DNA from: Actinomycetota bacterium
GTDB taxonomy: Bacteria > Actinomycetota > Geothermincolia > Fen-727 > Anoxymicrobiaceae
Length of the DNA stretch: 64,000 bases
Reading direction: 5' to 3'
Assembly: GCA_018831265.1 (NCBI GenBank)
Contig: JAHJCO010000019.1
Location: forward strand, 104,534-168,533
Each line of letters begins with the position of its first letter. Position 1 is the first letter of the stretch. The notes beneath the pieces were generated by a model. That model was given only the letters and a program-made list of their open reading frames with translations. It was not told the origin of the DNA and did not search any database. The translations under genes and the position numbers were made by a program. Of the stretch, positions 18,195 through 64,000 are shown piece after piece.

Positions 18195-18199
18195 ATTTG

Positions 18200-26710: not shown

Positions 26711-26772
26711 TACTTTGGCCCTAAGGTGCCAGGCACATTAGCCCGGGATTATTAGTGCCTGGCGCTTATGGA
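26711..26772. repeat. GTGCCAGGCAC-family palindromic element immediately after a stop codon
   Basis: CTAAGGTGCCAGGCACATTAGCCCGGGATTATTAGTGCCTGGCGC. Similar to 7731..7845. Confidence 0.6.
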
Positions 26773-29325: not shown

Positions 29326-30621
<1,296 letters not shown>

Positions 30622-30754
30622 CTGAAACCGGGGTCAGGCGGGATTCAAGTCAGCCAGGTCGAATAGGCGGACTGATTGGGTTGCACCACGATACCCGGGC
30701 TTCAGTAAGGCCTATGTGCAAGGTCACGATGTAGCTGAATCCCGCCTGACCCCA
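30622..30754. repeat. GGGGTCAGGC-TIR MITE-like element (TGACTGAAACCGGGGTCAGGCGGGATTCAAGTCA ... TAGCTGAATCCCGCCTGACCCC), about 20-bp TIRs
   Basis: Starts at the enolase stop codon. The internal sequence resembles the 17932..18194 copies (CCAGGTCG...GTTGCACCACG). Confidence 0.75.
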
Positions 30755-30838
30755 ACCGTAGTCGTTCCCGCCCAGTGAGAAAAGACCTCAACCACCAGTT
30801 CCCCACGACCTGAAACCTTGCTTTGATAGACTGAGCCG

Positions 30839-32483: not shown

Positions 32484-32628
32484 GTGAAAGAATGCCTCTG
32501 AAAGAATACCTCAGACCAAAACTTTCACGGGAAGGCGAGATCCAGCGGTTTGCACAGCGATGAAAGAAATGGTCTGAGGTTTTCTTTCATTCACAGCGAT
32601 GAAAGAAATGGTCTGAGGTATTCTTTCA
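32484..32628. repeat. Array of the 29-bp imperfect palindrome TGAAAGAA-N2-(GGTCTGAGG or its complement)-N3-TTCTTTCA. One partial unit plus three full units (32499..32527, 32561..32589, 32600..32628).
   Basis: Lies between the convergent MFS and hydrolase genes. The last unit ends 1 nt from the hydrolase stop codon. Confidence 0.8.
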
Positions 32629-32629
32629 T

Positions 32630-33847
32630 TCAGGCGGGCATCACTGAGGCCAGCCAGTCGAACATCCTCTTGTCGTAGAGAGCGCGGGCCTTGGGCTCGC
32701 AGTGCCAGTTGGCCCCCTCCTCGCGGGTGAACGGCACAAGCGCCTTCGGTGACTCGAGAGCGTCGTACACCTCCCGCGACTGGCCGGGCCAGAACTGCTC
32801 GTCGTCGGGGTCCGCGATGAACATTGGGCAGGTTATCTGCTTGATCACTTCGCGGGCGTTGTATTCCTGCGAGGCCTTGATCCACTCGAAATAGCTGTCG
32901 GCCCCGTAAGGCTTCATGCGCCAGGCGACCGTCTGGCGCGTCTCCTGCCCCATCATCTTCAGGGCGAGTCCCATCTCCTTGTTGAACTCCTCCTCCTCAC
33001 CGGCCTCCAGCAGCTTCATCATGCGCTTGGGGAACCTGCCGGCCACCGCTGTAGAGACGTCCATCACCCCGGGGTCCGCGATTCCCGCCGCGATGCGGTG
33101 CTCGAAGGCGAGCGCGCGGAGTATCCAGTAGCCGCCCTGACTGATCCCGGAGAGCGCGATGCGGTTCGGGTCGACATCCGGGCGTGCGACGAGAAAGTCC
33201 ACCACCGGGGTTATGACAGCCTCCCAGTCCGGGCGGAACGGCAACTTGTGCATGAAGAGCATGGCGTTCTGGCCCGGGCCGTCGAAGACCAGTGCGGCAT
33301 ACCCCCGCGCGAGCGCCCCCGCCACCCCGGAGCCCCACATCGCCACGGTCGGCCCGTCGCTGCCGTTGTTGAAGATGATGGTCGCCCATGGCCCGCCGGA
33401 GTCGTCCGGCTTGAAGAAGTAGCCGGGCATGGGGGTCTTCTCGTACGGTATCTCCACCCTCTCGGCCGGCGGGGAGAGCCTCGAGCAGAACCGGTCGAAG
33501 CATTCGATGTGCTCCTTCCAGTAGTCGGCGCCCCTGCCAGGGTCGTCCGTCCCGTCGATCATAGAGAGCGTCGCGGCGTAGTACGCGGAGGCGCGGAGGT
33601 AAGCCTGCCGGGCGCTCACGTCGTTCCCGCTCCCCACCGACTCGTCGGCGTACCCCCTAACCCGCGCCGCGGTCTCCAGCCAGCCGTCAACCCAGCTCTC
33701 CGCGTCGCCGGACCGGATACACTCGGCCGTCATGAGGATCTCTCCGGCGTCGGCGGTTCCGAAGTAACACGAGCCCAGCATTATCTGGAGCTCGAAGTCC
33801 ATCTGCTCGTGCTTGAAGAACCACTGCTTAGCCTTCGCGGCGGCCAT
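32630..33847 (-). CDS. Alpha/beta-hydrolase (dienelactone-hydrolase / S9-like)
   Basis: GISQGGYW nucleophile elbow. Start taken at MAAAKAKQW (33847). The 742-aa ORF upstream extension is R/G-rich junk. Confidence 0.75.
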   Translation of the reverse strand: MAAAKAKQWFFKHEQMDFELQIMLGSCYFGTADAGEILMTAECIRSGDAESWVDGWLETAARVRGYADESVGSGNDVSARQAYLRASAYYAATLSMIDGTDDPGRGADYWKEHIECFDRFCSRLSPPAERVEIPYEKTPMPGYFFKPDDSGGPWATIIFNNGSDGPTVAMWGSGVAGALARGYAALVFDGPGQNAMLFMHKLPFRPDWEAVITPVVDFLVARPDVDPNRIALSGISQGGYWILRALAFEHRIAAGIADPGVMDVSTAVAGRFPKRMMKLLEAGEEEEFNKEMGLALKMMGQETRQTVAWRMKPYGADSYFEWIKASQEYNAREVIKQITCPMFIADPDDEQFWPGQSREVYDALESPKALVPFTREEGANWHCEPKARALYDKRMFDWLASVMPA

Positions 33848-37059: not shown

Positions 37060-37176
37060 TGAAAGAAGACCTCAAACCATTTCTTTCATTCTGGAGGATG
37101 AGGCGGACTGAAAGTTTTGGTCTGAGGTAATCTTTCACAGGTTTCTGTGAAAGAATCGGTCTGAGGTAATCTTTCA
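37060..37176. promoter_or_regulatory. Three-unit module of the TGAAAGAA...GGTCTGAGG...TTCTTTCA palindrome (37060..37088, 37109..37137, 37148..37176) filling the 5' region of the CoA-transferase-GNAT gene. The last unit overlaps the ATG.
   Basis: Units read directly. The GAGGT SD-like sequence sits in the loop of the last palindrome, 8 nt before ATG 37176. Confidence 0.75.
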
Positions 37177-39056
37177 TGATCGAGTATGACCCCGAGGCGC
37201 TGACAAGGCGGTACCCCGGGAAGTTCGCGCCCGACGAGAAGGTCTTCGATGCCATCCGCAGGGGCGACCACCTCTACGTCGGCACCGGCTGCGGCGAGCC
37301 TCAGCACCTGCTCAAGGCGCTGGCCGCATTCGTGGACGACAACCCCAAGGCGTTCTTCGACGCCGAGGTGTTCCAGGTCTGGACCCTGGGGGTCGCTCCT
37401 TACGCCGAGGAGAAGTTCCTCTCCAACTTCCGGCACAACTCCTTCTTCATCGGGGACAACACGCGACAGGCGGTGAACGAGGGGCTGGCCGACTACACGC
37501 CCGTGTTCCTCTCCGAGGTGCCGGACCTGTTCCGCCGGGGACTGGTTCCCATCGACGTAGCGCTCATCCAGGCATCACCGCCGGACCGCAACGGCTACAT
37601 GAGCCTGGGTGTCAGCGTAGACATAACCAAGGCGGCGGTCGAGGTCGCGGACAGGGTAATCTGCCAGGTCAACCCCCGCATGCCGCGCGTGTTCGGGGAC
37701 TCCTTCATCCACGTCGAGGACGCGACCTTCCTGGTGCACTTCGAGGAGCCGCTGCTGGAGTATACGGCAACGGTCCCCGGCGAGCTGGCCCGTAAGATCG
37801 GGGGGTACGTGGCCAGGATTGTCGAGGACGGAGACACCATCCAGGTCGGTTACGGGAGCATACCGAACGCAATCCTGGCCGGGCTCGCCGAGAAGAAGCA
37901 CCTGGGAGTGCACACCGAGCTGCTGAGCGACGGCATCGTCGACCTCACGCGCTCCGGGGCCGTGGACAACAGCATGAAGGCGGTCGATAAGGGCAAGACG
38001 GTCGCAACGTTCTGCATGGGCACCGCGCCCACCTACGAGTTTATCGGGGACAACCCCTCCATCGAGTTCAGGCCCATAGACCGGACCAACAACCCGCTGG
38101 TCATCGCGGCCAACAGCCGCATGACCGCTATCAACGGCGCGCTGGCCGTGGACCTCACCGGCCAGTCCACCGCCGAGTCAATCGGCCCCATGTTCTACTC
38201 GGGCATCGGCGGCCAGGCCGACTTCATGAGGGGGGCGGTGCTCTCCCCCGGGGGGAAGTCGATACTGGTCCTGCCCTCCACCACCGCGGACGGGGAGACC
38301 TCCCGGATCGTGCCAAGCATCCCCGAAGGGGCGGGCGTGACCCTGACCCGCGGGGACATCCACTACGTGGTGACCGAGTACGGCATCGCCTACCTGCACG
38401 GCAAGAACATCCGGCAGCGGGCCATGGAGCTGATCGCCATCGCCCACCCACGGTTCAGGCAGTGGCTCATCGACGAGGCGAAGGGCTCCAACCTAATCTA
38501 CAGCGACCAGATCTTCGTCTCCGGCAAGGAGGGGGAGTACCCCGAGGAGCTCGAGAAGCCCCGCACCACCCGCGCCGGCCTGGAGATACTGCTGCGCCCG
38601 GTCCGCATGAGCGACGAGCCGCTGATCAAGGACTTCTTCTACTCCCTGTCCGACCAGAGCAACTACCGGCGGTTCATCATGCTGCGACAGCGGCTCTCGC
38701 ACGAGGTCCTGCAGAAGTTCGTGGCCATAGACTACACGCGTGAGATGGCGATTCTGGCGACGGTGCGGGAGGAGGAGATGGAGAAGGTGGTCGGCATGGG
38801 CCAGTACGTGGTCACGGGGGACACGCACACGGCCGAGGTCGCGCTGGCCGTGCGGGACGATCACCAGAAGCAGGGTATCGGCACCGAGCTGCTCCAGCAG
38901 CTCGAGCGGGCGGCCCGGCGCCAGGGCCTCCTGGGTTTCACCGCCGTGGTCCTGGGCGAGAACAGGCCGGTGATGAAGATGCTGGAGCGCTCCGGGTATG
39001 ACGTGCACAAAAGCAGCTCGGAGGGGGTCGTCCACCTCACCGCCAACTTCCGCTGA
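37176..39056 (+). CDS. Bifunctional acetyl-CoA hydrolase/transferase-family domain fused to a C-terminal GNAT acetyltransferase domain
   Basis: N-terminal ~430 aa matches the CoA-transferase family III-like Cat1/Ach1 fold (GTGCGEPQ ... GIGGQADF). C-terminal GNAT Q/R-x-x-G-x-G/A motif HQKQGIGTELL. Paralog at 48006..49898 (-). Confidence 0.8.
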   Translation: MIEYDPEALTRRYPGKFAPDEKVFDAIRRGDHLYVGTGCGEPQHLLKALAAFVDDNPKAFFDAEVFQVWTLGVAPYAEEKFLSNFRHNSFFIGDNTRQAVNEGLADYTPVFLSEVPDLFRRGLVPIDVALIQASPPDRNGYMSLGVSVDITKAAVEVADRVICQVNPRMPRVFGDSFIHVEDATFLVHFEEPLLEYTATVPGELARKIGGYVARIVEDGDTIQVGYGSIPNAILAGLAEKKHLGVHTELLSDGIVDLTRSGAVDNSMKAVDKGKTVATFCMGTAPTYEFIGDNPSIEFRPIDRTNNPLVIAANSRMTAINGALAVDLTGQSTAESIGPMFYSGIGGQADFMRGAVLSPGGKSILVLPSTTADGETSRIVPSIPEGAGVTLTRGDIHYVVTEYGIAYLHGKNIRQRAMELIAIAHPRFRQWLIDEAKGSNLIYSDQIFVSGKEGEYPEELEKPRTTRAGLEILLRPVRMSDEPLIKDFFYSLSDQSNYRRFIMLRQRLSHEVLQKFVAIDYTREMAILATVREEEMEKVVGMGQYVVTGDTHTAEVALAVRDDHQKQGIGTELLQQLERAARRQGLLGFTAVVLGENRPVMKMLERSGYDVHKSSSEGVVHLTANFR

Positions 39057-39136
39057 CTAAGATAGGGGTCAGGCGGGAGTCTATTCACATGGTTGTTGGC
39101 GTGACTTGACTGGTGCCTGACCCCGATTCTAGTCAG
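39054..39136. repeat. GGGGTCAGGC-TIR element with extended TIRs CTGACTAAGATAGGGGTCAGGC / GCCTGACCCCGATTCTAGTCAG
   Basis: Begins at the stop codon of the preceding gene. Confidence 0.75.
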
Positions 39137-39666: not shown

Positions 39667-40030
39667 CCCTGAGCTTGAGCGATATCGAGTTCACGCAGTG
39701 CCGCGTGTTCTTCGGGGTAAGACCTTCTCCCTCGAAGACGTGGCCCAGGTGGCCGCCGCAGCGCGCGCAGGTTATCTCCGTCCGGAAGCCGTCCGCGTCG
39801 GTGGTCCGCACGACCGCCCCCTCGATCTCGTCATCGAACGCCGGCCACCCGCAGCCCGAGCGGAACTTGTCCACGGACCTGTAAAGGGGCGCCTCGCACC
39901 TCCTGCATACGTAAGTACCGGGCTCGAAGCAGCCCTCGTATTCGCCCGAGAACGGCATCTCGGTGCCCTTGTCGACCATGACGCGCTCTTCCTCGGGGGT
40001 CAACTCGTTCAGCTTCATGTCATTCTCCAT
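39650..40030 (-). CDS. msrB: Peptide-methionine (R)-S-oxide reductase
   Basis: CxxC...CxxC zinc site and the [17 protein letters not shown] catalytic region. Overlaps msrA by 17 nt. Confidence 0.9.
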
Positions 40031-40036
40031 AATAGA

Positions 40037-40132
40037 GGGGCGTCGGACACTTTCATTGCGTTATGACGCTAACGACATCGGCCTGGTCCAACGGCACTGC
40101 AAGTGTCCGACCCCCCGGTTCGTCCAAGGGTC
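40037..40132. repeat. GGGGCGTCAGAC-family MITE-like element (GGGGCGTCGGACACTTTCATTGCG ... CCAACGGCACTGCAAGTGTCCGACCCCCCGGTTCGTCCAAGGGT)
   Basis: Shares TIR and internal core with 14831..14928 and 63020..63186. Confidence 0.7.
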
Positions 40133-40410
40133 GGTCATCCCTTACGTCCCGGTGTAACTTTTGTCACATGGAGCGTAGCGCCTCCCCCTGCGTCTGGCAT
40201 ATGAGCCCGGTCAACCCGGGCCCCACCCCGCGCCCACCCGGGCGCCCGCAGTGAGAGGCGCTGATGTCGGGAGTTCAACGCCCGGGGCCCGAATCCTGCA
40301 CGCGCCTGAGATTATTCCGAAGTCTGGCCCCGTCATTCGTGACGGTTCAGTCACGGGACCATTTTCCCGATATACCATGTGGGGGTCGGACGCCTATCCA
40401 GGGGGTAGTC

Positions 40411-43400
40411 ATGGGCAAGAGAGCGACCGCACCGATTGCATGCTTTCTCGTGCTGGTGGGACTCGTGTTCGGGGTCGGGTGGAACTGCCGGTCGGCGAGC
40501 GCGGGGCGGGCGGAGATCTCCGGCGACCACGTGCCGGGCGAGGTAATCGTCAAGTTCAAGCCCGCGGTGGCGGCCAGCACCGAGGACGCCGTACTGGCAA
40601 CGGAACGACTCACAGTCAAGCACGAGAACGAGCGGCTTGGCTTCAAAGTGGTCGACCTTCCCGGAGGCACCTCGGTTGCTGAGGCCGTGGCCGATCTTTC
40701 TGCCGACCCACGGGTGGAGTATGCCGAGCCCAACTACATCGACCACGTCCTCGATGAGCCTGCGATGGTCCCCGACGATCCCCTGTACCCCAGCCAGTGG
40801 CACATGCACGGCTTCGCCGAGGGCGGCATCGACGCCCAGACCGCCTGGGACACCGAGGAGGGCGACCCCACGGTCATAGTGGCGGTGGTGGACACCGGGG
40901 TAGCCTACGAGAACTACGGGAGTTACAGCCAGGCGCCGGACCTGGCGGGTACCACCTTCGTTTCGCCGTACGACGCAATCGACCTGGACGGGCACCCGAA
41001 CGACACTAACGGCCATGGGACGCACGTGACCGGGACCATAGCCCAGACGACCAACAACGCGCTGGGGTGCGCCGGCGCAGCCCACGGGTGTACCATTATG
41101 CCTGTGAGGGGCATCGGTACGCATTCCCAGATGGCCGATGCCTACACCTGGGCCACCGACCACGGGGCGGATGTGATCAACTACAGTGGCGGCGGTAGCG
41201 CTTCGGAGACAAAGAGGGCCGCCTGCCAGTACGCGTACGACAACGGTGTCACCATCTGCGCCGCTACCGGGAATGACAACGGCCCGATTATTTACCCGGC
41301 GGCATATGATCTGTACTGCATCGCCGTAGGGGCCACCGACCGTAACAAGAACCGCGCATGGTACTCCAACTACGGTCCGCAGATAGACGTTGTCGGTCCC
41401 GGTGGGGACACGACAGGCGGGTCGGTGAACGGCGTCTGGCAGCAGACCTACGTGACCGAAGACGACCCCTCCAGCGGCTTCAATTACCAGGGCTGGCAGG
41501 GGACGTCAATGGCCACGCCTCACGTGAGTGCGACGGCTGCTCTCTATATCTCAAACTCGGGGATAATCAACAACCCCGACGCGGTGAGGTCCCGTCTCCA
41601 GACCACGGCACACGACCTCGGCGGAGCCGGCTGGGACCAGTACTTCGGTTACGGGCTGGTTGACGCGAACCTCGCGGTGATAGCCGACAATCCCGTGCCG
41701 GTCACCACATCCATTTCGCCTGACAACCGGAACGCCGGGGCCCCCGGCTTCACCCTGACCGTCAACGGGGCGGGATTCGTAGCGGACTCACAGGTCCGCT
41801 GGAACGGCTCAGACCGCACCACGACCTACATATCGGGCAACCAGCTGACGGCGCAGATCGCGGCCGGAGACATCACAACCGCCGGGAGCGCCCTGGTCAC
41901 CGTGTTTAACCCCGCTCCGGGGGGCGGCACCTCCAACGTACAGACATTCGACATCCAGACCCCGGTGAACCCGGCACCGAGCATTTCATCGCTCTCACCT
42001 GACCACGCGACGGCCGGCGGCCCCGGGTTCACCCTGACCGTCAACGGTACGGGGTTCATCGGTGATTCGCAGGTGAGCTGGAATGGCGCGAACCTTCCCA
42101 CCACTTACGTCTCGAGCACCAGGCTCACGGCTACCGTCCCGGCGGCGAGCATCGCCGGCGGAGGGGCCGCACAGGTGTGCGTGTCGAACCCCCCGCCCGG
42201 GGGAGGGGAGTCGGCCGCGAAGTCGTTCTCCATCGTCCAGGCCGCCTCGGAGTGGTACCTGGCCGAGGGCACGACCGGTTGGGGCTTCGACACCTACGTA
42301 TCGATCGTCAACCCCAACGACAGCGCGGTGAACGCTCAGGTGACCTACAACACAACGAGCGGCCCGATGGACGGAGGCACGGTGAACATGCCGCCCGAGA
42401 GCCGGGCCACCGTCTACCCCAGGGACGTCCTGGGCGAGGCCGACTTCTCGACCACGGTGACCTGCGCGGGGGGAAAGCCGATAGCGGTGGACCGCACCAT
42501 GACATGGACCGGCACGGGGGCGGCCGCCGCCGAGGAGCACTCCTCCATAGGGGTCACGGCCCCCGCTACCACCTGGTACCTGCCCGAGGGCTCGTCCGCA
42601 TGGGGGTTCGAGACCTGGCTGCTCATCCAGAACCCTGGCGCGACCGGCGCGACCTGCCAGGTCACCTACATGCTGGAGGGCGAGCCGCCGGTCACGGTCC
42701 AGAAGGGCGTCCCGGCCGGCTCCAGGCAGTCCTTCAACATCGCGGAGGACATCGGGACCAGGGATGCCAGCATCTCCGTTGTGTCCGACGCGCCCGTCAT
42801 CCCCGAGCGCGCCATGTACAAGGACGCCCGGCGCGAGGGCCACGACTCCATAGGCACCACCACCCCGGCGGCCGACTACTACCTGGCGGAGGGCACCACG
42901 GCCTGGGGGTTCACCACCTACGTGCTGGTGCAGAACCCGCAGGACCAGGCGGCCGACGTGACCGTCACCTACATGACACCGGAGGGTGCGCTCGAGCAGC
43001 CTGCCTTCAGCCTGCCCGCGAACTCACGCAAGACCATAAGGGTCAACGACGTGAGCCCCGCGGCCGGCTACCCCATAGACGTCTCCAACACCGACTTCTC
43101 GACCCGGGTACACGCCAGCAAGCCCATAATCGCGGAGCGGGCTATGTACTGGGAGTCCGAGACGGGCCAGGCCTGCCACGACTCCATCGGTATGAGCGAG
43201 CCGCACGCGACCTTCTACCTGCCTGACGGACAGGCGGGAGCCCAGGTGGAGACCTGGACCCTGGTGCAGAATCCCAACGGCACCCCGGTCGAGGTCGAGG
43301 TGACCTACCTCTCGCCCGACGGCACCGCGAACAAGACCTTCACCGTCACCATCCCCGCCAATTCCCGCTCTACCTTCAACATGGCCGATCAGGGCGTAGA

Positions 43401-43521
43401 CGGAAGGGCCGGGATCATGGTCACCTGCCTCACTCCCGGCGCGAAGATCATGGCCGAGCGCGCCATGTACTTCGACAACAGGTCCGGCGGTACGGATACC
43501 ATAGGCGGCTACAGCGATTAG
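40411..43521 (+). CDS. Secreted S8 subtilisin-like serine protease with Fn/Ig-like spacer domains and tandem C-terminal ~105-aa repeat modules (paralog of 18200..21253)
   Basis: Signal peptide MGKRATAPIACFLVLVGLVFG. VVDTGV, HGTHVTGTIA and GTSMATPHVS motifs. Repeats WYLAEGTTGWGF...VNPN. Confidence 0.9.
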   Translation: MGKRATAPIACFLVLVGLVFGVGWNCRSASAGRAEISGDHVPGEVIVKFKPAVAASTEDAVLATERLTVKHENERLGFKVVDLPGGTSVAEAVADLSADPRVEYAEPNYIDHVLDEPAMVPDDPLYPSQWHMHGFAEGGIDAQTAWDTEEGDPTVIVAVVDTGVAYENYGSYSQAPDLAGTTFVSPYDAIDLDGHPNDTNGHGTHVTGTIAQTTNNALGCAGAAHGCTIMPVRGIGTHSQMADAYTWATDHGADVINYSGGGSASETKRAACQYAYDNGVTICAATGNDNGPIIYPAAYDLYCIAVGATDRNKNRAWYSNYGPQIDVVGPGGDTTGGSVNGVWQQTYVTEDDPSSGFNYQGWQGTSMATPHVSATAALYISNSGIINNPDAVRSRLQTTAHDLGGAGWDQYFGYGLVDANLAVIADNPVPVTTSISPDNRNAGAPGFTLTVNGAGFVADSQVRWNGSDRTTTYISGNQLTAQIAAGDITTAGSALVTVFNPAPGGGTSNVQTFDIQTPVNPAPSISSLSPDHATAGGPGFTLTVNGTGFIGDSQVSWNGANLPTTYVSSTRLTATVPAASIAGGGAAQVCVSNPPPGGGESAAKSFSIVQAASEWYLAEGTTGWGFDTYVSIVNPNDSAVNAQVTYNTTSGPMDGGTVNMPPESRATVYPRDVLGEADFSTTVTCAGGKPIAVDRTMTWTGTGAAAAEEHSSIGVTAPATTWYLPEGSSAWGFETWLLIQNPGATGATCQVTYMLEGEPPVTVQKGVPAGSRQSFNIAEDIGTRDASISVVSDAPVIPERAMYKDARREGHDSIGTTTPAADYYLAEGTTAWGFTTYVLVQNPQDQAADVTVTYMTPEGALEQPAFSLPANSRKTIRVNDVSPAAGYPIDVSNTDFSTRVHASKPIIAERAMYWESETGQACHDSIGMSEPHATFYLPDGQAGAQVETWTLVQNPNGTPVEVEVTYLSPDGTANKTFTVTIPANSRSTFNMADQGVDGRAGIMVTCLTPGAKIMAERAMYFDNRSGGTDTIGGYSD

Positions 43522-43570
43522 GTGGGGTCAGACCCGTGAACTTGGATCTACCTGCGAGGGTCTGACCCCG
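43517..43570. terminator. Hairpin GGGGTCAGACCC-N23-GGGTCTGACCCC immediately after the protease stop codon (GGGTCAG repeat family)
   Basis: Inverted repeat read directly. Confidence 0.6.
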
Positions 43571-44612: not shown

Positions 44613-44690
44613 CCTGACTAAGAATGGGGTCAGGCACTATTCTGAGTCATTGCACTGAATCGAATCGCGCCTGACCCCTATCCTAGTCAC
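44613..44690. repeat. GGGGTCAGGC-TIR element with TIRs CTGACTAAGAATGGGGTCAGGC / GCCTGACCCCTATCCTAGTCAC
   Basis: Between flavodoxin and the short Fe-S gene. Confidence 0.75.
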
Positions 44691-47930: not shown

Positions 47931-48002
47931 AGTGTTTCAAAAGTGCCTGACCCTTTTGCTACACTCGACTCATCTGACTTGACTGCCGCCTGACCCCCGG
48001 CT
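47931..48002. repeat. Compound GGGTCAGGC-family repeat. Minimal hairpin CAAAAGTGCCTGACCCTTTTG plus a second GCCTGACCCC end and a CTGAGTCAC flank.
   Basis: Read directly, between convergent genes. Confidence 0.55.
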
Positions 48003-48005
48003 GAG

Positions 48006-49898
48006 TCACTCGCCGAATGGCATCTGGAGGTAGTACACCCCCGAATCGATGTTCTGTTCCAGAGTGAACATCTTCTCGAAGATGTGGTACATGGGCTTGT
48101 TCTCGACCAGAACCTCCGCCGTGAAGCCGAGCAGGCCGTGGCGCTTGGCGAGCTGGGTCAGGTAGGCGAGCAGCTCGGTGCCAATCCCCTTGTCCTGGTA
48201 CTGGTCGCCCACGACGAAGGCGACGTCGGCGGTGTGGTGGGCCTCGTCGATGTCGTAGGAGCCCATCCCCGCGATAATCTCCCTGTCACCCTCGTGGACC
48301 ACCGCCAGTATGATCATCTCCCTGGTGAAGTCGATGACCACGAACTCCTGGAGGCGCTCGTGGGGCATGTCCGTGCGCATGGAGATGAACCGCCTGTACA
48401 TGCTGTCGTCGGAGAGAGAATAGAAGAAGTCCTTGAGGGCGGGCTCGTCGCTGATGCGAACCGGGCGGAACAGCACCTCTACCCCGTCCCGGGTGGTCCG
48501 GTATGTCTCCAGCTCCTCGGGGTACTGGCCCTTCTCCCCGGGGATGAACGCCTGGTCGGGATAGACCAGGTTCAGCCGCCTGGCCTCGGAGATAAGCCAC
48601 TGCTGGAACCTCGGGTGTGCGATGGCGATGAGCTCCATGGCCCGCTCGCGCACGTTCTTGCCGTGCAGGTAGGCGATACCGAACTCGGTGACCACGTAGT
48701 GGATGTCGCCCCGGGTCAGGGTCACCCCGGCCCCCTCGCCGACGAACGGCACGATCCTGGATACCTCCCCGTCCCCCGCGGTCGAGGGCAGCGCCAGGAT
48801 GGTCTTCCCCCCCGGCGCCAGTACAGCGCCACGCATGAAGTCGGCCTGACCGCCTATACCGGAGTAGAACTGCCGGCCGATGGACTCGGCCGTCGACTGA
48901 CCAGTAAGGTCGATCTGCAGGGCCGTATTAATCGCCGTCATGTTGTGGTTTCGGGCTATGTTAAGCGGGTTGTTGGTGTAATCGATGGGCCTGAACTCAA
49001 TGGACGGGTTGTCGTCGATGAACTCGTAGGTATCGGCTGTACCCATACAGAAAGTGGCCACGGTCTTGCCGCGGTCGATGGTCTTGCGACTGTTGTCGAT
49101 GACCCCCTTGCGGATCAGCTCCACGATACCGTCGCTGAGCAGCTCGGTGTGGACGCCCAGGCTCTTCTTGTCCGACAGGTTCGCGAGGATGGCGTTGGGG
49201 ATGCTCCCGTAGCCGACCTGGATGGTGTCCCCGTCCTCGATGATGCGGGCCACGTACCTGCCCAGCTGCAGGGTCAGCTCGTCGGAGACACTGGGAGCGT
49301 ACTCCAGAAGGGGCTCGTCGAAGGGCACCACGAAGTCGACGTCGTCCATGTGCACGAAGGTGTCGCCGTGCACCCGGGGCATCCGGCAGTTCACCTGCGC
49401 TATGACGACGGAGGCCTTCTCGACGCCGGCCTTGGTGATGTCCACGCTCACGCCCAGGCTCATGTACCCGTTCCTGTCCGGGGGCGAGGTCTGCACCAGT
49501 GCTACGTCGATAGGGATGAAGCCCCTGCGGAACAGGTCGGGGACCTGCGAAAGAAATACCGGGGAGTAGTCGGCGAGCCCCTGGTTGACCGCGTCCCGGG
49601 TGTTGTCCCCGATGAAGAAGGAGTTGTGGCGGAAGTTGTGGCGGAACCTCTCCTCGGCGTACGGCGCGACGCCCAGCGTCCAGACGTGGAACACCTCGGT
49701 ATCGTAGAACGCCTTGGGGTGAGAGTCGACGTACTCGGCCAGGGACGCCACCAGGTGCTGCGGCTCCCCGCATCCCGTGCCCACGAAGAGGTGGTCACCC
49801 CTCCTGATACGGTCGAACACCTTCTCCTCCGGGACGAACTTCCCGGCGCTGCCGAGACGCATCCTCTCCATGGCTTCAGCGCACTCCCGCGGGTCCAT
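48006..49898 (-). CDS. Bifunctional acetyl-CoA hydrolase/transferase-family domain fused to a C-terminal GNAT acetyltransferase domain (paralog of 37176..39056)
   Basis: Co-linear similarity to the other paralog over the full length. GNAT motif DKGIGTELL. GGGAGGTG SD before ATG 49898. Confidence 0.8.
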   Translation of the reverse strand: MDPRECAEAMERMRLGSAGKFVPEEKVFDRIRRGDHLFVGTGCGEPQHLVASLAEYVDSHPKAFYDTEVFHVWTLGVAPYAEERFRHNFRHNSFFIGDNTRDAVNQGLADYSPVFLSQVPDLFRRGFIPIDVALVQTSPPDRNGYMSLGVSVDITKAGVEKASVVIAQVNCRMPRVHGDTFVHMDDVDFVVPFDEPLLEYAPSVSDELTLQLGRYVARIIEDGDTIQVGYGSIPNAILANLSDKKSLGVHTELLSDGIVELIRKGVIDNSRKTIDRGKTVATFCMGTADTYEFIDDNPSIEFRPIDYTNNPLNIARNHNMTAINTALQIDLTGQSTAESIGRQFYSGIGGQADFMRGAVLAPGGKTILALPSTAGDGEVSRIVPFVGEGAGVTLTRGDIHYVVTEFGIAYLHGKNVRERAMELIAIAHPRFQQWLISEARRLNLVYPDQAFIPGEKGQYPEELETYRTTRDGVEVLFRPVRISDEPALKDFFYSLSDDSMYRRFISMRTDMPHERLQEFVVIDFTREMIILAVVHEGDREIIAGMGSYDIDEAHHTADVAFVVGDQYQDKGIGTELLAYLTQLAKRHGLLGFTAEVLVENKPMYHIFEKMFTLEQNIDSGVYYLQMPFGE

Positions 49899-49914: not shown

Positions 49915-50037
49915 TGAAAGAATACCTCAGACCAAAACTTTCATCCGCGCGGAAGAAAACCTCAGACCAGTTCTCTCGCGGGGTTTGCTGCCGTGGGTTG
50001 GTGAATAGTGAAAGAAATGGTTTGAGGTTTTCTTTCA
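49915..50037. promoter_or_regulatory. Second three-unit module of the TGAAAGAA...GGTCTGAGG...TTCTTTCA palindrome (49915..49943, degenerate 49952..49976, 50009..50037), upstream of the minus-strand CoA-transferase-GNAT paralog
   Basis: Read on the minus strand, the order and orientation (complement form, then two GGTCTGAGG forms, then SD-ATG) match the 37060..37176 module. Unit 49915..49943 differs by 1 nt from unit 37109..37137. Confidence 0.75.
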
Positions 50038-50050
50038 TAGATGGCGATCG

Positions 50051-52661: not shown

Positions 52662-52693
52662 CGTGCAAAAGGGTCAGACCCTGATGCAAATGG

Positions 52694-54157: not shown

Positions 54158-54188
54158 TACTAAGGTGCCAGGCACCTTAGTATTAGTC
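54155..54188. terminator. Perfect hairpin CTAATACTAAGGTGCC-AGGCACCTTAGTATTAG between convergent genes (GTGCCAGGCAC family)
   Basis: Inverted repeat read directly. Overlaps the stop codon of 53876..54157. Confidence 0.7.
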
Positions 54189-54190
54189 GA

Positions 54191-54625
54191 TCAGGTGAGT
54201 CTCCCGGCGGCGGCGGCGCAGAACTCCACGAACGGCGGGCACACCGACTCGAATACGCCTTCCTCCCGCGCCTTCTGCAGCCCCTCGGGGGTCGAGACGT
54301 CCCTGTTTATCAGCAGGGCGCACGAGCAGGAGCCAAACTCCCCGGTGAAGTCGCGCACCAGGGAGGCGGCGAACTCGATCAGAGCGTCGATGTCCTCGTC
54401 CGGACGGCCCCGCCCGAGCACCGCGCCCGCGGCCATCACCGCACCCACGATGGCGCCGCAGACCATCCCGCTTCGCCCCATGCCCGCGGCAAACCCCGTC
54501 GCGACCCCCGGATACCAGTCCCCCTCGATGCCGAGCCGCTCCATGTTCGCGCTCAGCACCGCCTCGGCGCAGTTGCGGGAGGAGAGGAACAGCTCCCTGG
54601 CCCGCTTTGCCACCTCGTCGCTCAT
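54191..54625 (-). CDS. C_GCAxxG_C_C family putative redox-active protein
   Basis: NCAEAVL ... GMVCGAIVGAVMAAG matches the C-GCAxxG-C-C signature. Confidence 0.7.
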   Translation of the reverse strand: MSDEVAKRARELFLSSRNCAEAVLSANMERLGIEGDWYPGVATGFAAGMGRSGMVCGAIVGAVMAAGAVLGRGRPDEDIDALIEFAASLVRDFTGEFGSCSCALLINRDVSTPEGLQKAREEGVFESVCPPFVEFCAAAAGRLT

Positions 54626-58078: not shown

Positions 58079-58134
58079 AGGAGAGCGCGCTCATACCTTC
58101 CAGACCTCGATCTTCAGCCCCGAGTAGAGCCCAG

Positions 58135-58163
58135 TGAAAAAAGTGGTCTGAGGTTATTTTTCA
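58135..58163. repeat. Solo unit of the GGTCTGAGG palindrome family (TGAAAAAAGTGGTCTGAGGTTATTTTTCA) overlapping the stop codon of 58154..58663
   Basis: Read directly. Confidence 0.65.
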
Positions 58164-58663
58164 AGCGTGCCCTCGACCCACAGCCGCCACGAGCAATGGT
58201 CGTCGCCCCTGGGCAGCGAGCGGGTTATCTCCATGCGGACGGCCGGGTTCACGCTGTCCAGCCAGTGCAGGAAGATGGTGTTGTCCACGAACTCGCAGTC
58301 CACCACGTCCTCGCGCGAGGAGCGCCTCAGGTTCTCCCACCACGGGCAGCGAAGAACGTCGAAGCGGGCCTCGGCGGGACCGGTCATCTCCCAGGCGCAT
58401 GTTGTGCCGTCGATCCGGCAGAGCTGCTCCATCAGCATGTTCACGGTCTGAAGGTCCGGCGGGTCCTCCTCCGAGAGGGTGATTTCGAGCTTCCGCGCCA
58501 CGCGCCTCAGCTGCACCGGCCCGTATCGCTTCCAGACCTCCAGGTCCAGCTCGAACGCCGCCTCGAAGCCGAGTCTCTCCTCGGCCGCCAGGAACCATAG
58601 TCCGTCGATGGCGGTGATGGCCCCCAGGCGCAGCCTCTCCAGTTGTTCGTCGTCCAGCTCCAT
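58154..58663 (-). CDS. Hypothetical cytosolic protein, paralogous to 7198..7722
   Basis: Shared DGLWF ... RRVARKL ... Cys pattern. Confidence 0.55.
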   Translation of the reverse strand: MELDDEQLERLRLGAITAIDGLWFLAAEERLGFEAAFELDLEVWKRYGPVQLRRVARKLEITLSEEDPPDLQTVNMLMEQLCRIDGTTCAWEMTGPAEARFDVLRCPWWENLRRSSREDVVDCEFVDNTIFLHWLDSVNPAVRMEITRSLPRGDDHCSWRLWVEGTLEK

Positions 58664-58713: not shown

Positions 58714-59229
58714 ATGACGATGTGGCGGCGATTGTGCAAAAGGGTCAGGCCCTTTTGCACGGTTCTGGTGATTACGGCGGTTATTGCGGGACTGGTGGCG
58801 CTGGGCGGGTGTGACGATAAGACGACGACGACCACGCCGGAGACCTCAACCACGACCCAGACAGAGAGCGGTAAGACCGGGGAACACCCGGCCGAAGAGC
58901 AGGTCATCTACGACTACTTCGATGCCATCAACAGGGGCGACTACGAGGCCGCCTACGAGCTTCGCACCATGTCCAGGCAGCCGCAGTCGGACCACCAGGC
59001 GTTCGTCGCCTCCTACCAGCCCTACATCAAGTCCGTCAAGGTCGTATCGGTCAAGAAGCTGCCCGAGTTCAGCTCGGCCGAGCGCGAGGAGTTCCAGGTC
59101 GAGTTCGACGCGACCTACATCAAGCAGTACCCGGCGGGCAGCGGCTATCTCCCGCTCTTCTACGTTGTTGTCCCGGACACACAGAACGAGGGCGAGTGGC
59201 TCATCGAGTCGGAGGGGACAGGACCATGA
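58714..59229 (+). CDS. Putative lipoprotein (lipobox LGGC, Thr-rich linker)
   Basis: Signal peptide plus LVALGGCDD. Overlaps the next gene by 4 nt (ATGA). Confidence 0.6.
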   Translation: MTMWRRLCKRVRPFCTVLVITAVIAGLVALGGCDDKTTTTTPETSTTTQTESGKTGEHPAEEQVIYDYFDAINRGDYEAAYELRTMSRQPQSDHQAFVASYQPYIKSVKVVSVKKLPEFSSAEREEFQVEFDATYIKQYPAGSGYLPLFYVVVPDTQNEGEWLIESEGTGP

Positions 59230-59783: not shown

Positions 59784-59814
59784 CCGGCCTCGAGGCCTGA
59801 AGCTACATCTGGCG

Positions 59815-59850
59815 ACCGGTTGACCAACCCTTGGACGAACCGGGGGGTCA
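59815..59850. repeat. Solo or truncated left TIR of the GGGGCGTCAGAC family (CAACCCTTGGACGAACCGGGGGGTCAGACACTTGAACGTGC)
   Basis: Matches the left end of 14831..14928. No right TIR found. Confidence 0.6.
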
Positions 59851-59922
59851 GACACTTGAACGTGCTCGATTCCCATAAACACCACGATTGGGGTCCACGC
59901 GTTAAAGAGTCTGCCCCTCTAT

Positions 59923-61542
59923 CTAGAAGAACACCTTCTTCATCCGGCCGGTGTCGTACTCCCAGCGGCGGTTGGAGACGTTGTTGGGATCGAGAGTCAT
60001 CTTCACCGCGGTGAACGCCCTCATGAACTCGACCATGTTCGGCTGGACCGCGGGCATCACCAGGTCCTCCATGCCCGGCATGCCCTTGAGCACGGCCCCG
60101 TTGCCCCCGGCGATTATCATCCCCTTGCCCATGGCGCGGCCCGTGGCCCGGAAGTACCCGAAGAGCATGCGCAGCAGGTCGTCCTTGTCACACTGGCTGG
60201 TGTAGAGGTCGTACTCCAGGTACGCCGCGCGCCCCATGTGGTACGGCTGCAGGTAGGTGGAGGCGTCGTCCGGGGAGAACGCGTCGCCGGTGCTGCCGAT
60301 CTGGTTGGTGCACGCCTCGCGCATCATCTTCTCGATGCCCACCATGTTGTCCAGCTTGTCGATGAGCCCGCCGATCATGAAGGACCCGCGCACCCTCTGC
60401 ACGCGCACCGTCACGTTGAAGAACTTCACCCATTTGTCGAAGTTCACGAACTCGTTTTCCTCGGTCAGGTCCTCGAGGGCTTCCCCCGGCAGGTAATCGA
60501 ACATGGGGAAGCGCTCCTCCAGCATCCGCCGGGTGACCCGGGCTTTCAGGTCGGCCTCCTCGAGGGTCTCGCCGCCGAATATGGTGAGCAGGTTGTGCCG
60601 GGGCATCATCGTCATGAGCTTCTGGGCTTCGAAGTTGTCGTCGCCCATGAAGATGCCGTAGAAGGAGTCCATGAGGTGGGCGAGCTCGATGGCGAGGTTA
60701 TCGTTGGCCACGTCGTACAGTGCGTCGGCCATGACCTCCAGGCGGTCTTCCTCGTAGCACGGAAAGACCTGCGAGTGGAACGGGGGCTCGGGGTAGAGCC
60801 TGACCGTCATTCTGGTAACGATGCCCAGCGTACCGAAGGCGTAGCGGTAGATGTAGGAGAGGTCGGGCCCGGGACCCGGCACGTGCCCCTTCACCGTACC
60901 GGCGCGGGAAGCGGGGCCCGTCTTCAAGACCTCGCCGGTGGGCAGCACCATCTCCACGTCTATGATGCTGTCCATCCCGAACCCGTACTTGGAGGCCATG
61001 GTGTTGATGTTGCAGAAGCCGTGGTTGCTGATGACCCCGGCGGTGGCGGAGGTGGAGGGGTTCAGAAGGCGGAGCCCCTCCCTCTGCGCCGCGGCCTGCA
61101 GCATCAGGTAGTTGACACCCGGCTCGATGACGGCGTACATGTTCTCGCCGTCTATCTCGACGATCCTGTCCATGCGACGCAGGTCGCAGACGATGCCGCC
61201 GTACGGGGGAAGGGTGAGCCCCACGGTGGTCAGCCCCGTGCCCACGGGCATCACGTCGACGAGGTGCTCGTTGGCGACGCGGTACACAGCGCGGACCTCA
61301 TCGGTGCTCGCCGGGAGGCACACGATATGTGGGTAGCAAGCGGGCGTGAAGCTCTGGTCGCGGGCATAGCCGCACAGGATGGACGCTGCGTCCGTGGCCC
61401 ACTCGTCCCCCAGGGCATCCTTCAGGTCACGGAGCGCGGCGGCCAGGCTCCCCGCACGGTTGTGCACCGGGTCCTTCTCCATGACCTGCGGCCGGTGGAC
61501 TACCCGCCGCTCCCGTATCTCTTCCCTTATCCTGCTCACCAC
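59923..61542 (-). CDS. FAD-linked oxidase (PCMH-type FAD-binding domain plus C-terminal oxidase domain)
   Basis: 539 aa. FAD_binding_4-like N-domain pattern (VMPVGTGLTTVGLTLPPYGGIVCDL). Confidence 0.75.
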   Translation of the reverse strand: MVSRIREEIRERRVVHRPQVMEKDPVHNRAGSLAAALRDLKDALGDEWATDAASILCGYARDQSFTPACYPHIVCLPASTDEVRAVYRVANEHLVDVMPVGTGLTTVGLTLPPYGGIVCDLRRMDRIVEIDGENMYAVIEPGVNYLMLQAAAQREGLRLLNPSTSATAGVISNHGFCNINTMASKYGFGMDSIIDVEMVLPTGEVLKTGPASRAGTVKGHVPGPGPDLSYIYRYAFGTLGIVTRMTVRLYPEPPFHSQVFPCYEEDRLEVMADALYDVANDNLAIELAHLMDSFYGIFMGDDNFEAQKLMTMMPRHNLLTIFGGETLEEADLKARVTRRMLEERFPMFDYLPGEALEDLTEENEFVNFDKWVKFFNVTVRVQRVRGSFMIGGLIDKLDNMVGIEKMMREACTNQIGSTGDAFSPDDASTYLQPYHMGRAAYLEYDLYTSQCDKDDLLRMLFGYFRATGRAMGKGMIIAGGNGAVLKGMPGMEDLVMPAVQPNMVEFMRAFTAVKMTLDPNNVSNRRWEYDTGRMKKVFF

Positions 61543-61702: not shown

Positions 61703-63016
61703 ATGGCTGAGGAGGAGACGTACACAAGATACGGCTACCGCTGGACCATCCTGGTCGTCTACGGGCTGGTCATGTGCGTCCAGGCTTTTCTGTGGCTGAG
61801 CTTCGCCCCTATCGAGAGCTCGGTGCAGGACGTGCTGGGCAAGAGCGCCACCCTGATCGGGCTGCTGGCCCTGGTGGGCCCGTTCATGTTCATCATCGTC
61901 GCATCTCCCGCCGGCGCGCTGTCCGACAAGCGTGGGTGGAGGTACTCGACCTCCATCGGAGTGGTCATGCTGATCGTGGCGGCCGTGGTGAAGGCGGTCA
62001 CCCCACACCTCACCGGCAACACCGACGTGCAGTACTGGGTCTACCTGCTGATGCAGGTACTGAGCGGCACGGGCGCCGTGTTCGCCATGGTCAACCTCTC
62101 CAAGATGCCCATCAAGTGGTTCCCCGAGAAGCAGAGGGCACTGGCCAACGGGCTGACCACCATGAGCATGTACCTGGGCGCAGCCATCGGGCTGCCGCTG
62201 GTGACCGCCATCGCCGCTATACCCGAGGGCGCGTCGCGCGCGACGGCCACGGCCGGCCTCAACAGGGTGCTCCTGGTGATGGCGATAATCATGGGAGTCG
62301 TGGGAGTACTGTTCTTCCTGCTCTCCAAGGAGGCGCCGCCGACCCCCGCCGGGCCGGAGCCGGAGGTCGAGACCCTCTCGCTTCGTGAGACCTTCCCGCG
62401 CTTCATGCGCTCGGCGCAGTTCCGCGTGCTGTGCCTTGTCTCGCTGGTCGGCTACGGGGTGTACATCTCCCTGACCGTGACCATGGAAAAGCTGATGACC
62501 TACCACGGCTTCACCACGAGCTTCGCGGCGTTCGTAGCCGCCGGGATAACCATGGGCGGCATAGTTGGCGCCGCGGTGATACCCGGGCTGTCCGAGAAGG
62601 TCGGCCTGCGCAAGCCGTTCCTCATTGCCGCCGCGGTCCCCGCCATACCGGGCCTGCTGATCCTGGCGTTCGTGGGCAGCGAGCCGCTGGCCCTCATCAC
62701 GGGGATAATCATGGGGTTCTTCCTCCTGCCGGCGCTGCCGGTGACGTTCACCATTGTGGGCGAGATGCCCGACATCGGGCCCAAGCTCGCCGCCACCGCC
62801 GTTGGTACCCTGCTGGCGGTGGGGAGCATCGGCTCCGCGTTCGTGCCGCTCCTTGTCCGGGCCATGGGCCGGAAGCAGGCCGGTGACGTGATCGACTACA
62901 GGATCGCCCTGGTGCTCCTGGCGGCGCTGACGGCGGTGGCGCTGGTGCTCGTCATCATCTACGTCAAGGAGACGGGTCCCAAGAGGAAAGGCGCCGTGGC
63001 ACCCGAGTCCGAATGA
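61703..63016 (+). CDS. MFS transporter (12 TMS)
   Basis: GAGGGGGGAAACA SD. 437 aa with 12 hydrophobic segments. Confidence 0.85.
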   Translation: MAEEETYTRYGYRWTILVVYGLVMCVQAFLWLSFAPIESSVQDVLGKSATLIGLLALVGPFMFIIVASPAGALSDKRGWRYSTSIGVVMLIVAAVVKAVTPHLTGNTDVQYWVYLLMQVLSGTGAVFAMVNLSKMPIKWFPEKQRALANGLTTMSMYLGAAIGLPLVTAIAAIPEGASRATATAGLNRVLLVMAIIMGVVGVLFFLLSKEAPPTPAGPEPEVETLSLRETFPRFMRSAQFRVLCLVSLVGYGVYISLTVTMEKLMTYHGFTTSFAAFVAAGITMGGIVGAAVIPGLSEKVGLRKPFLIAAAVPAIPGLLILAFVGSEPLALITGIIMGFFLLPALPVTFTIVGEMPDIGPKLAATAVGTLLAVGSIGSAFVPLLVRAMGRKQAGDVIDYRIALVLLAALTAVALVLVIIYVKETGPKRKGAVAPESE

Positions 63017-63019
63017 TGA

Positions 63020-63186
63020 GGGGCGTCAGACGTTTTCGTTGCGCAATGGCCTAATCGAAATCGGCGTAGTCCAACGGTCCGAACACAGAGTGGCGTCAGA
63101 GGTTTTCATTGCGTGATAACCTTGTCGAAATCGACGTAGTCCAACGGCACTGCAAACCTCTGACCCCACGGCTCGTCCAGGGGTTG
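63020..63186. repeat. Two tandem copies of the GGGGCGTCAGAC-family MITE-like element. The first is truncated. The second is complete and ends in CCTCTGACCCCACGGCTCGTCCAGGGGTTG.
   Basis: Direct comparison with 14831..14928, whose reverse complement is nearly identical. Confidence 0.75.
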
Positions 63187-63211
63187 ATCGGCCGCTCCGT
63201 TCAGATGTTTC

Positions 63212-64000
63212 CTAGTTGAGCTTGTTATCCGAGCGCAGCTTGTCCGCCTTTTCGCGGAGTTCTGTGGCTTCCTCACCCATTGAGGTTACGTTGTCGATGT
63301 ACTCGGTGCTGGTCTGCTGTATCTCCTCGACGCTCACGGGCTGTCCCGCGTCCGCCGCCTCGTACTGCCCTTCTATGTAATCCAGGTACTCGTTTGTGGT
63401 GTCCTGTATCTTGTAGTCCAGGGCGATGAGCTCGAGCACCGTCTTCGCGTACTCCTTGTACTTCTCGACCCCTTTCAGGCCCCCTACCTGCTTGTACTCG
63501 CCCTCGGCCGACTTCAGCTCCTCCTGGGCGGCATCGATGGCCTCCCTGATCACGTCGGCTTCCTCCTTGAACTCGGCGGCGGTAGCGATGTTCTCGATCT
63601 TGCTGGTCAGCAGCTCGTCGAGCGCCTCGGCCCCGGCGTCGGCCTCGGCCTGCATGGCCTCCATGTACTTGTCACCGCTCTTCACCAGCGTCTTGGCCTT
63701 GCCCGTGTCGCTCTTGAAGACGGTGAACACCAGGACCAGCACCACGGCGACGATCACCAGCAGGATCCCTATCGCGGCGATCAGCACGATGGGTCCCTTC
63801 CCGGATTTCTTCGCGGCGGGGACGGGTGTGGGTAACGCCGGTGGAGGGCCCGCGGCCTGCATCGGAGGCGCGGCGGGGGGCATCGCCGGGGGCACCGCGG
63901 GAGGCGGCGCGGGCACGGGAGCGCCGGGGGGCTCGGGAGCCGGGGGCTGAGAGGCCTCCGCCTCTATGGGGGTCCCGCACTTGCTGCAGAACGAATCCCC
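63212..64000 (-). CDS. Zinc-ribbon / Pro-rich / single-TM / coiled-coil protein. N-terminus beyond the window end.
   Basis: The reverse complement of 63970..64000 encodes ...DSFCSKCGT (zinc-ribbon half). The ORF is open to the window edge. Confidence 0.6.
   Translation of the reverse strand, partial: GDSFCSKCGTPIEAEASQPPAPEPPGAPVPAPPPAVPPAMPPAAPPMQAAGPPPALPTPVPAAKKSGKGPIVLIAAIGILLVIVAVVLVLVFTVFKSDTGKAKTLVKSGDKYMEAMQAEADAGAEALDELLTSKIENIATAAEFKEEADVIREAIDAAQEELKSAEGEYKQVGGLKGVEKYKEYAKTVLELIALDYKIQDTTNEYLDYIEGQYEAADAGQPVSVEEIQQTSTEYIDNVTSMGEEATELREKADKLRSDNKLN

Follow-up and report, generated by a model that had tools for sequence, protein, structure and literature searches.

Imperfect palindromes of 100-155 bp lie at gene ends as the Correia (CREE/NEMIS) elements of Neisseria and the ERIC/IRU elements of enterobacteria, where they are co-transcribed as mRNA hairpins, occur next to start codons, can alter expression and come in size variants with different interiors; Correia elements also carry 26-bp terminal inverted repeats, a TA target duplication and IHF and promoter motifs. 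Small hairpin repeats have been well studied in Proteobacteria, and we know of no description of them in Actinomycetota. The REPINs, or REP-BIMEs, of Pseudomonas and Enterobacteria are mobilized by RAYT (Y1/HUH) transposases (PMC3116915, PMC3337134, PMC5581495), the REPIN-RAYT pattern being that of a single-copy enzyme unlinked to the repeats and of long vertical persistence (PMC3337134, PMC5581495).

In the window, by which we mean the whole 64,000-nucleotide stretch of actinobacterial DNA analyzed here, a dispersed family of hairpin repeats of ~100-140 bp lies between ordinary genes. Its members resemble REPINs in being intergenic, non-coding units of ~100 nt whose two inverted arms form a long hairpin with compensatory pairing, in sharing the genome with several other families in mosaic clusters, in their long persistence at orthologous sites, and in showing neither a linked multi-copy transposase nor, at one clean site (of the GGGGTCAGACCCC family), a target duplication. 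Unlike REPINs, they have an actinobacterial host and no RAYT in the 220 kb searched, they lack a GTAG-type 5' tetranucleotide, they have a leader and alternative tails attached, and their arms are not self-palindromic REPs (as the GGGGTCAGACCCC of a sister family is). With Correia and ERIC elements they share the form of imperfect palindromes at gene ends and next to start codons, with size variants of the interior; unlike Correia elements, they show no such terminal inverted repeats, TA duplication or IHF and promoter motifs beyond one weak promoter-like match, and no sequence similarity. The family is a previously unseen sequence family of an already known kind, that of REPIN/MITE-like hairpin repeats, with unusually clear structural covariation and a modular architecture.

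An initial annotation had described a family of dispersed repeats that have a core in common and inverted arms, with elements at 14831..14928, 40037..40132 and 63020..63186, and copies are indeed present at or near these places: the window contains three full copies, a truncated tandem unit, a diverged copy and a relative with a long interior. Repeat finding in the window returned pairwise matches among copies of 121-122 nt at 75-84% identity and of 68 nt at 90%, and the 21-mer CAACCCTTGGACGAACCGGGG, taken from the TIR of the initial annotation, occurred four times at ≤3 mismatches, against 0 expected. The copies starting at 14831 and 63093, previously taken for nearly exact reverse complements, are 84% identical over 121 nt. 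The similarity held under rigorous alignment, in which 23 copies were essentially gap-free, and a covariance model built from this alignment finds every copy with E-values of 1e-22 to 1e-25. Across 220 kb from two related genomes, the model recovered 25 full copies together with the diverged subfamily; consistently with MITE-like size and copy number, the units are non-coding, measure 100-165 bp and are present in at least 25 copies.

The window's species is represented by the MAGs GCA_018822775.1 (contig JAHJJV010000042.1, 173.6 kb) and GCA_018824995.1, with identical sequence, and a sister species by the Actinomycetota MAG JAZDFZ01 (GCA_043807425.1), with ~89% nucleotide identity over a 7.6-kb syntenic stretch. 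The initial annotation had proposed scanning the genome and its relatives, including metagenomic ones, with a consensus. This yielded at least 25 further copies in JAZDFZ01 and none in metagenomes: a 20-base core pattern searched against 185,579 GTDB representatives matched a single species, JAZDFZ01 (22 matches at 20 loci), apart from one chance match, while of two patterns searched in JGI metagenomes one had no match and the other a single chance match. No copy of the family was found in a scan of viral contigs or by BLAST against plasmids and phages, Rfam 15 gave nothing at the gathering threshold (only chance hairpin matches at E ≥ 0.5), and the arm sequences, searched as literature text, returned only primers and unrelated sequences. 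Within these collections, the family is lineage-restricted. Independent assemblies break inside element copies (L024 at its start, L029 at its end), and one contig of GCA_018824995.1 and one Logan contig end within copies, as is expected of a repeated element; element copies in this way fragment the MAGs of this lineage.

Described in the orientation of the 40037(+) copy, a unit has an A/T-rich leader of 9-14 nt with the approximate consensus TCYGAAnnAnRGA, then a core of 80 nt, and finally either of two tails, each ~45 nt long. The core reads G[G/T]GGCGTCRGA-NNN-TTTCATTGCGT...TCCAACGGCACTGCAA-NNN-TCYGACCCC[A/C]C, and all 23 aligned cores are 80 nt long and essentially free of indels, with 1 nt missing from a single copy. 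Tail A (GGTTCGTCCAWGGGTTGATCGACCRCTCCGTTCGGATG) follows a core in 18 of its 18 occurrences and never stands alone. Its distal portion repeats the leader and arm start in inverted orientation (TCCGAA..GAGTGG), which gives the long form a second, though weak, inverted repeat on the outside; tail B has the approximate sequence GGWMAKMGACGTT...AGGATGTGGCG. Inversion is confined to G[G/T]GGCGTCRGAC... and ...GTCYGACCCC[A/C]C. The conserved leader and tail lie outside these inverted arms. The TIR of ~29 nt proposed earlier proves to be the 3' arm plus the one-sided tail A, read on the other strand and not repeated at the opposite end. Within the arms, GTC-R-GA and TC-Y-GAC are invariant except for the R/Y pair, which suggests sequence-specific recognition there. 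An apical mini-hairpin, GTCGAAATCGAC, was considered as a further conserved feature and discarded, since its columns vary without compensation.

Every copy shares a hairpin of 4 bp, CxC, 11 bp, TxC, 2 bp, TxC and then at least 3 bp, that is, a 20-bp interrupted stem with three conserved mismatches, and fold energies range from -35 to -44 kcal/mol (z = -1.9 to -3.7). Standard pairs occupy 98.5% of the stem pair cells of the 23 copies, and five pairs (27 cells) have changed on both sides; none of 500 shuffles reached the observed pairing and covariation, and sliding the 3' partner by 1-3 columns lowered pairing to 31-42%. In the diverged subfamily, the inner stem is kept by further double changes, with retention of the CxC and of the first TxC mismatch. 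As in REPINs, the unit is a hairpin of two inverted arms and a spacer in which pairing is kept by compensatory change. On the canonical strand, G.U pairs outnumber A.C mismatches 5:1, an excess that is not significant (about p = 0.1). Since the arms covary, as a protein reading two double-stranded ends would not require, a folded single strand of DNA or RNA is most likely the form that is maintained, and exchange by gene conversion among three stem subtypes, instead of independent compensatory events, may account for part of the covariation.

The three full copies in the window are all of the long form. The copy at 14806..14941, on the minus strand (a covariance model match of 116 bits and a tail match), has its leader at 14928-14941, its hairpin core at 14848-14927 and tail A at ~14806-14847. 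On the plus strand, 40023..40158 (covariance model and fold) comprises a leader at 40023-40036 that abuts the RBS of msrB (start 40018, minus strand), a core at 40037-40116 with the stem variant CACTT/AAGTG, and tail A from 40117 to ~40158, with a subtilase gene on the tail side. The third belongs to a plus-strand tandem. Its first unit (63006..63076) is truncated, with a leader that includes the stop codon of an MFS gene (63014-63016) and core columns 15-71, ends at GTCCAACG, and is orthologous to the 5' half of a single copy in the sister species. The second and full unit (63076..63211; covariance model and fold) has its leader at 63076-63089, its core at 63090-63169 with the stem variant GGTTT/AAACC and GTGG/CCAC, and tail A from 63170 to ~63211, reaching the stop codon of the convergent gene 63212-64000.

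What had been read as a solo TIR at 59815-59850 is one end of a complete, diverged copy at 59802..59931(-) (model match 59836-59931(-)), which has the common arms and tail A, a different interior, a 5' arm shorter by 3 nt than in its ortholog and a weaker stem (-29.4 kcal/mol, z = -1.0), and takes up the space between two convergent genes, from stop codon to stop codon. Near the start of the window, the supposed degenerate, 170-bp AT-rich version is a related element, as had been recognized, with a different standing: 1926..2092(-) is a member of a long-interior sister subfamily with 21-nt arms (GGTGTCGGACGTTTGAATCAC and its inverted partner, at 1926-1946 and 2072-2092, 90% complementary), a 125-nt AT-rich interior and a G-rich TTCG tail (1914-1925 and beyond). 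It has paralogs in JAZDFZ (L006:845-1003 and L009:5362-5522) with the same arms and interiors 65-70% identical, and belongs to an older sister subfamily rather than being a degenerate copy.

The leader end of a unit always lies at a gene end, either 3-17 nt past a stop codon or directly against an RBS, and in the RBS-side copies the start codon is ~21 nt from the core, on the opposite strand. Long-form copies fill the whole convergent intergenic gaps 59784-59922 and 63017-63211. The neighbors in the window are hgcA/hgcB with an AbrB/MazE-like gene, an Fe-S protein with PadR, msrB-msrA, subtilases, an FAD oxidase and an MFS transporter, and in the related MAG thiolases, lexA and a PLP enzyme; all neighbors checked were ordinary housekeeping genes (precomputed Pfam for the window and flanks; 20 proteins scanned). 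Unlike a riboswitch or cis-leader, the element is found in either orientation, in 5', 3' and convergent positions and beside unrelated genes. A terminator scan of all four copies gave no call and no U-tract, and a promoter scan of the four gave one weak promoter-like match (ATGAAA-16-TATTAT at 40056-40029, abutting the RBS). A promoter or terminator module was rejected on these results.

The 14806..14941 copy lies between an AT-rich promoter-like stretch (~14750-14780) and the RBS and ATG (14950) of the Fe-S/PadR operon, to which it is reverse-oriented. It had been proposed that the element covers the first 23 codons of the ORF 14908..16005 and that such insertions might alter the 5' coding ends of flanking genes. 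The copy, extending to 14941, overlaps only ~11 codons of that ORF and stops 8 nt before the RBS of the start at 14950, the annotated start of the 351-aa Fe-S protein; most listed homologs are also 351 aa long, nearly all with full-query alignments. The start of ORF 14908-16005 is thus not the real one, and the element covers no Fe-S codons. Because the promoter-like stretch is conserved in a relative without the element, this copy is probably transcribed as part of the 5' UTR of the Fe-S operon.

Comparison of the two species and of more distant relatives revealed both movement and persistence. In three JAZDFZ composites (L006, L013 and L016), one unit with its own leader is inserted within another. 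Upstream of lexA, a composite copy is common to both species, and the window's species carries there a third nested unit (L031:976-1074) with a new interior, placed right after TCCAAC, which JAZDFZ does not have. The junction of the window's tandem likewise falls right after GTCCAACG, at a place where JAZDFZ carries just one copy, whose stem differs but is likewise matched. The space between two stop codons at L031:9416-9560 is occupied by a unit with leader and tail B, where JAZDFZ has an unrelated 62-nt GC hairpin. Between lexA and dinB, the window's species has a GGGGTCAGACCCC hairpin (~118 nt with its extension) with clean junctions and no target duplication, and JAZDFZ the empty site TAACGATG. 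The 14806-14941 copy is absent from the orthologous site upstream of the Fe-S gene in a distant relative (78% identical), as is the 40023-40158 copy upstream of msrB in a relative with an 87%-identical MsrA. The two flanks of one copy resemble each other slightly more than flanks of different copies do (p = 0.002), in no consistent register, and the studied family itself offered no clean filled/empty site. Other differences involve genes: the distant relative has an extra 143-aa gene (L025:2604-3035) between the shared promoter region and the Fe-S gene, where the window has the hairpin element, and the window's species has a PhdYeFM-type toxin-antitoxin pair downstream of dnaE2 (L031:6876-7408) that is absent there in JAZDFZ.

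The two species have both copies of the 7.6-kb syntenic stretch in common, a vertical persistence of the kind known from REPINs, so mobility appears to be slow. The 59.8-kb copy and its JAZDFZ ortholog (L014:3466-3582) are 97% identical (135/139, intergenic region), and the corresponding figures are 88-93% for coding regions, 80-86% for third codon positions and 73-86% for the remaining intergenic DNA; the window copy lacks 3 stem nt, yet is otherwise highly conserved. Given 97% identity against 80-86% at third positions, this element is constrained or homogenized rather than drifting.

The repeats share the window with at least five other hairpin families, units of different families adjoin, and about half of the intergenic regions of the window contain some repeat hairpin. 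The initial annotation had joined the families into one superfamily through a GTCAG(A/G)C core recognized by the same machinery. A single superfamily with the GGGTCAGRC families is plausible on the motif and arm evidence: the window has 24 occurrences of GGGTCAGRC (2.8 expected), nearly all of them in hairpins between genes, the 3' arm of the studied family carries GGGG(G)TCRGAC, subfamilies with unrelated interiors keep common arms, and L001:1738-1824 is a hybrid of GGGGTCAGACCCC arms and an interior resembling that of the studied family. A common machinery would be a further inference. The bare heptamer GTCWGAC is not enriched in the window (10 found, 10.3 expected). The hairpin unit at 14783..14812 (GTAGCAGAAGGGCC...CTTTTGCTAC), adjacent to the 14806..14941 copy, belongs to another family, which also directly follows tail A in two copies of the related MAG, forming mosaic clusters.

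The co-resident families differ in build. A long-hairpin family, GTGACTA..GGGGTCAGGC(NNN)ATTCAAGTCA ... GCCTGACCCC..TAGTCAC, already distinguished in the initial annotation as the GGGGTCAGGC family, occurs in many intergenic regions (990-1085, 17944-18200, 30619-30765, 39054-39135, 44615-44690 and 47975-48009 in the window). A short hairpin family with the palindromic arms GGGGTCAGACCCC / GGGGTCTGACCCC is found at 12968-13053 and 43522-43570 in the window and at L031:2072-2157 and L001:1738-1824. T-rich units of 29-39 nt (TGAAAGAAnnnGGTCTGAGGTnnTCTTTCA) form tandem and inverted arrays (32485-32630, 37060-37178, 49915-50039 and 58127-58165) and flank both acetyl-CoA hydrolase/GNAT genes and others. 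Two further small hairpin families, GT(G/A)GCAAAAGNGCCWGRCCCTTTTGC and GTGCCAGGCAC with TAATA/ATTAGC arms, have their sites at 4937-4962, 14783-14812, 47937-47965, 52663-52688 and 58734-58759, and at 7740-7838, 26726-26755 and 54165-54194.

No transposase was found in the window and the adjoining ~7 kb of contig (~1.5 kb preceding and 5.5 kb following it; precomputed Pfam), nor among the ten element-flanking proteins checked, so any mobilizing enzyme would be unlinked to the copies. The 220 kb sampled, ~6% of a genome at an assumed typical size of 3-4 Mb, held no high-identity multi-copy protein among 199 predicted proteins, no Y1/RAYT-like ORF in six frames (best E = 0.15 with the Y1 queries used) and no RAYT gene flanked by repeats; there was also no parent autonomous element with the same ends in ~220 kb. 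This outcome fits the REPIN-RAYT pattern without proving it.

Taken together, we consider it probable that these are lineage-restricted, non-autonomous, modular REPIN/MITE-like repeats that act as a single-stranded hairpin and are moved by an unlinked enzyme. Units would be copied into intergenic DNA at gene ends, into each other and beside units of the sister families, and their functional form would be the folded single strand, as ssDNA during copying, as RNA in untranslated regions, or both, the copies being presumably transcribed as 5' or 3' UTR hairpins. An unlinked, probably single-copy enzyme would act in trans through an HUH/Y1 (RAYT- or IS200-like) mechanism or another that leaves no duplication, as the lack of a target duplication at the clean GGGGTCAGACCCC site points to. 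Against this reading stand the negative transposase and RAYT searches in ~220 kb, the lack of a clean filled/empty site of the family's own, the slow mobility, the 3 nt lost from the stem of the otherwise highly conserved 59.8-kb copy, and the part that gene conversion may have had in the covariation. The arms could also be the ends of a TIR-type MITE in the classical sense, derived by internal deletion from a DDE-transposase IS or a Tn3-family element, with double-stranded ends and a target-site duplication. The length (100-160 bp), the ~24-nt inverted arms matching at ~23/27 positions, the subfamilies with common arms and different interiors and the nested insertions all agree with such an origin, as do the inversion of the leader and arm start in the distal part of tail A and the slightly greater similarity of same-copy flanks. 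We regard it as unlikely nonetheless, because the binding of two double-stranded ends does not require strict covariation of the arms, a conserved asymmetric leader and tails lie outside them, no target duplication was found in a consistent register and none at the clean GGGGTCAGACCCC insertion, and 220 kb held no transposase and no multi-copy protein. The arm start GGGGTCNGACG resembles the start of the Tn3 inverted repeat, and like Tn3 TIMEs the units have a G run followed by GTCNGACG (compare Tn3 GGGGTCTGACG), with 19/38 matching positions in a hand comparison with the Tn3 repeat; unlike in TIMEs, arm pairing is limited to ~24 nt and the vicinity has no Tn3-type transposase. TIMEs have a 38-bp inverted repeat (GGGG...TAAG) and a 5-bp duplication. 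Given the degree of match, the missing TAAG at the inner end and the missing duplication (the five nt next to the arms are conserved but not directly repeated), a Tn3-derived TIME was rejected.

Single-stranded folding would also suit what is primarily a host-selected structured RNA module, a 5' or 3' mRNA stabilizer, RNase III site or terminator without a U-tract, spread by recombination instead of transposition and retained for that role. Stable and covarying stems, conservation above synonymous sites, copies placed exactly at gene ends (near stop codons or against an RBS), the L031:9416-9560 copy standing in place of a terminator-like GC hairpin of the sister species and the 5:1 ratio of G.U pairs to A.C mismatches on the canonical strand speak for this explanation. 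It fits poorly with the presence of both orientations relative to flanking transcription, next to unrelated genes, and with the absence of a U-tract, a terminator-like call or an Rfam match. Insertion of units into one another and partial units in tandem are, moreover, characteristic of mobile DNA, and the G.U excess is not significant; we judge this explanation quite improbable. A combination of mobility and host function, in which the five or six co-resident GGGTCAGRC families are a domesticated REP/RAYT-like (or other single-strand-enzyme) system whose hairpins define the 5' and 3' ends of mRNAs, seems doubtful at present. The hairpins would then serve as terminators or stabilizers replacing ordinary intrinsic terminators, a role that would explain both the conservation above synonymous sites and the placement exactly at start and stop codons. 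That the repeat is a mini-gene, with a short acidic peptide (..QPMDEPWGRTFAVPLEYVDFDKDITQ*) coded on the reverse strand, is largely ruled out: most copies leave the frame open, their substitutions look conservative and the core is free of indels, but the short forms carry an in-frame stop immediately upstream and lack a start codon, the window copies lack an ATG, L014 has an internal stop, L020 a replaced apex, and variation shows no three-base periodicity (44% at putative third positions, permutation p = 0.25). An integron attC site was also considered. Like attC, the units are imperfect palindromes with conserved unpaired bases, lie directly after stop codons and would act as a folded single strand, and their GTCCAAC fits RYYYAAC, two nested or tandem junctions falling right after it. 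Unlike in attC, this motif is single and apical rather than terminal, there are no paired R'/R'' boxes of the RYYYAAC/GTTRRRY form, and sequence is conserved as well as structure; with copies among housekeeping genes, no cassette array and no intI, this candidate was discarded.

Should the probable reading as enzyme-mobilized hairpin repeats prove right and a dedicated enzyme come to light, long-term association between host and element of the REPIN-RAYT type would extend to a new phylum; otherwise this would be an ordinary, though well-structured, repeat family. In either case, the family and its sisters fill much of the intergenic space of an uncultured mercury-methylating (hgcAB-carrying) lineage, and copies positioned exactly at the starts and stops of genes, among them the one in the leader of the Fe-S/PadR operon, which is divergent from hgcAB, could affect expression. 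The hgcAB pair (13082-14640 of the window, minus strand) is genuine: HgcA has the cap-helix motif GINVWCAAGKGTF, HgcB has two Fe-S motifs and a C-terminal CC, and an AbrB/MazE-like gene of 86 aa precedes the pair.

Two sets of paralogs were also observed among the genes of the window. Acetyl-CoA hydrolase/GNAT fusion paralogs form an inverted pair at 37176-39056(+) and 48006-49898(-), with 71% protein identity and 76-80% DNA identity over ~1.4 kb. Large S8 subtilase/DUF5719 paralogs lie at 1-987, 18200-21253 and 40264-43521, and also in L004 and L009; they contain internal repeats of ~300 nt, and several have hairpin elements right after the stop codon or before the start.
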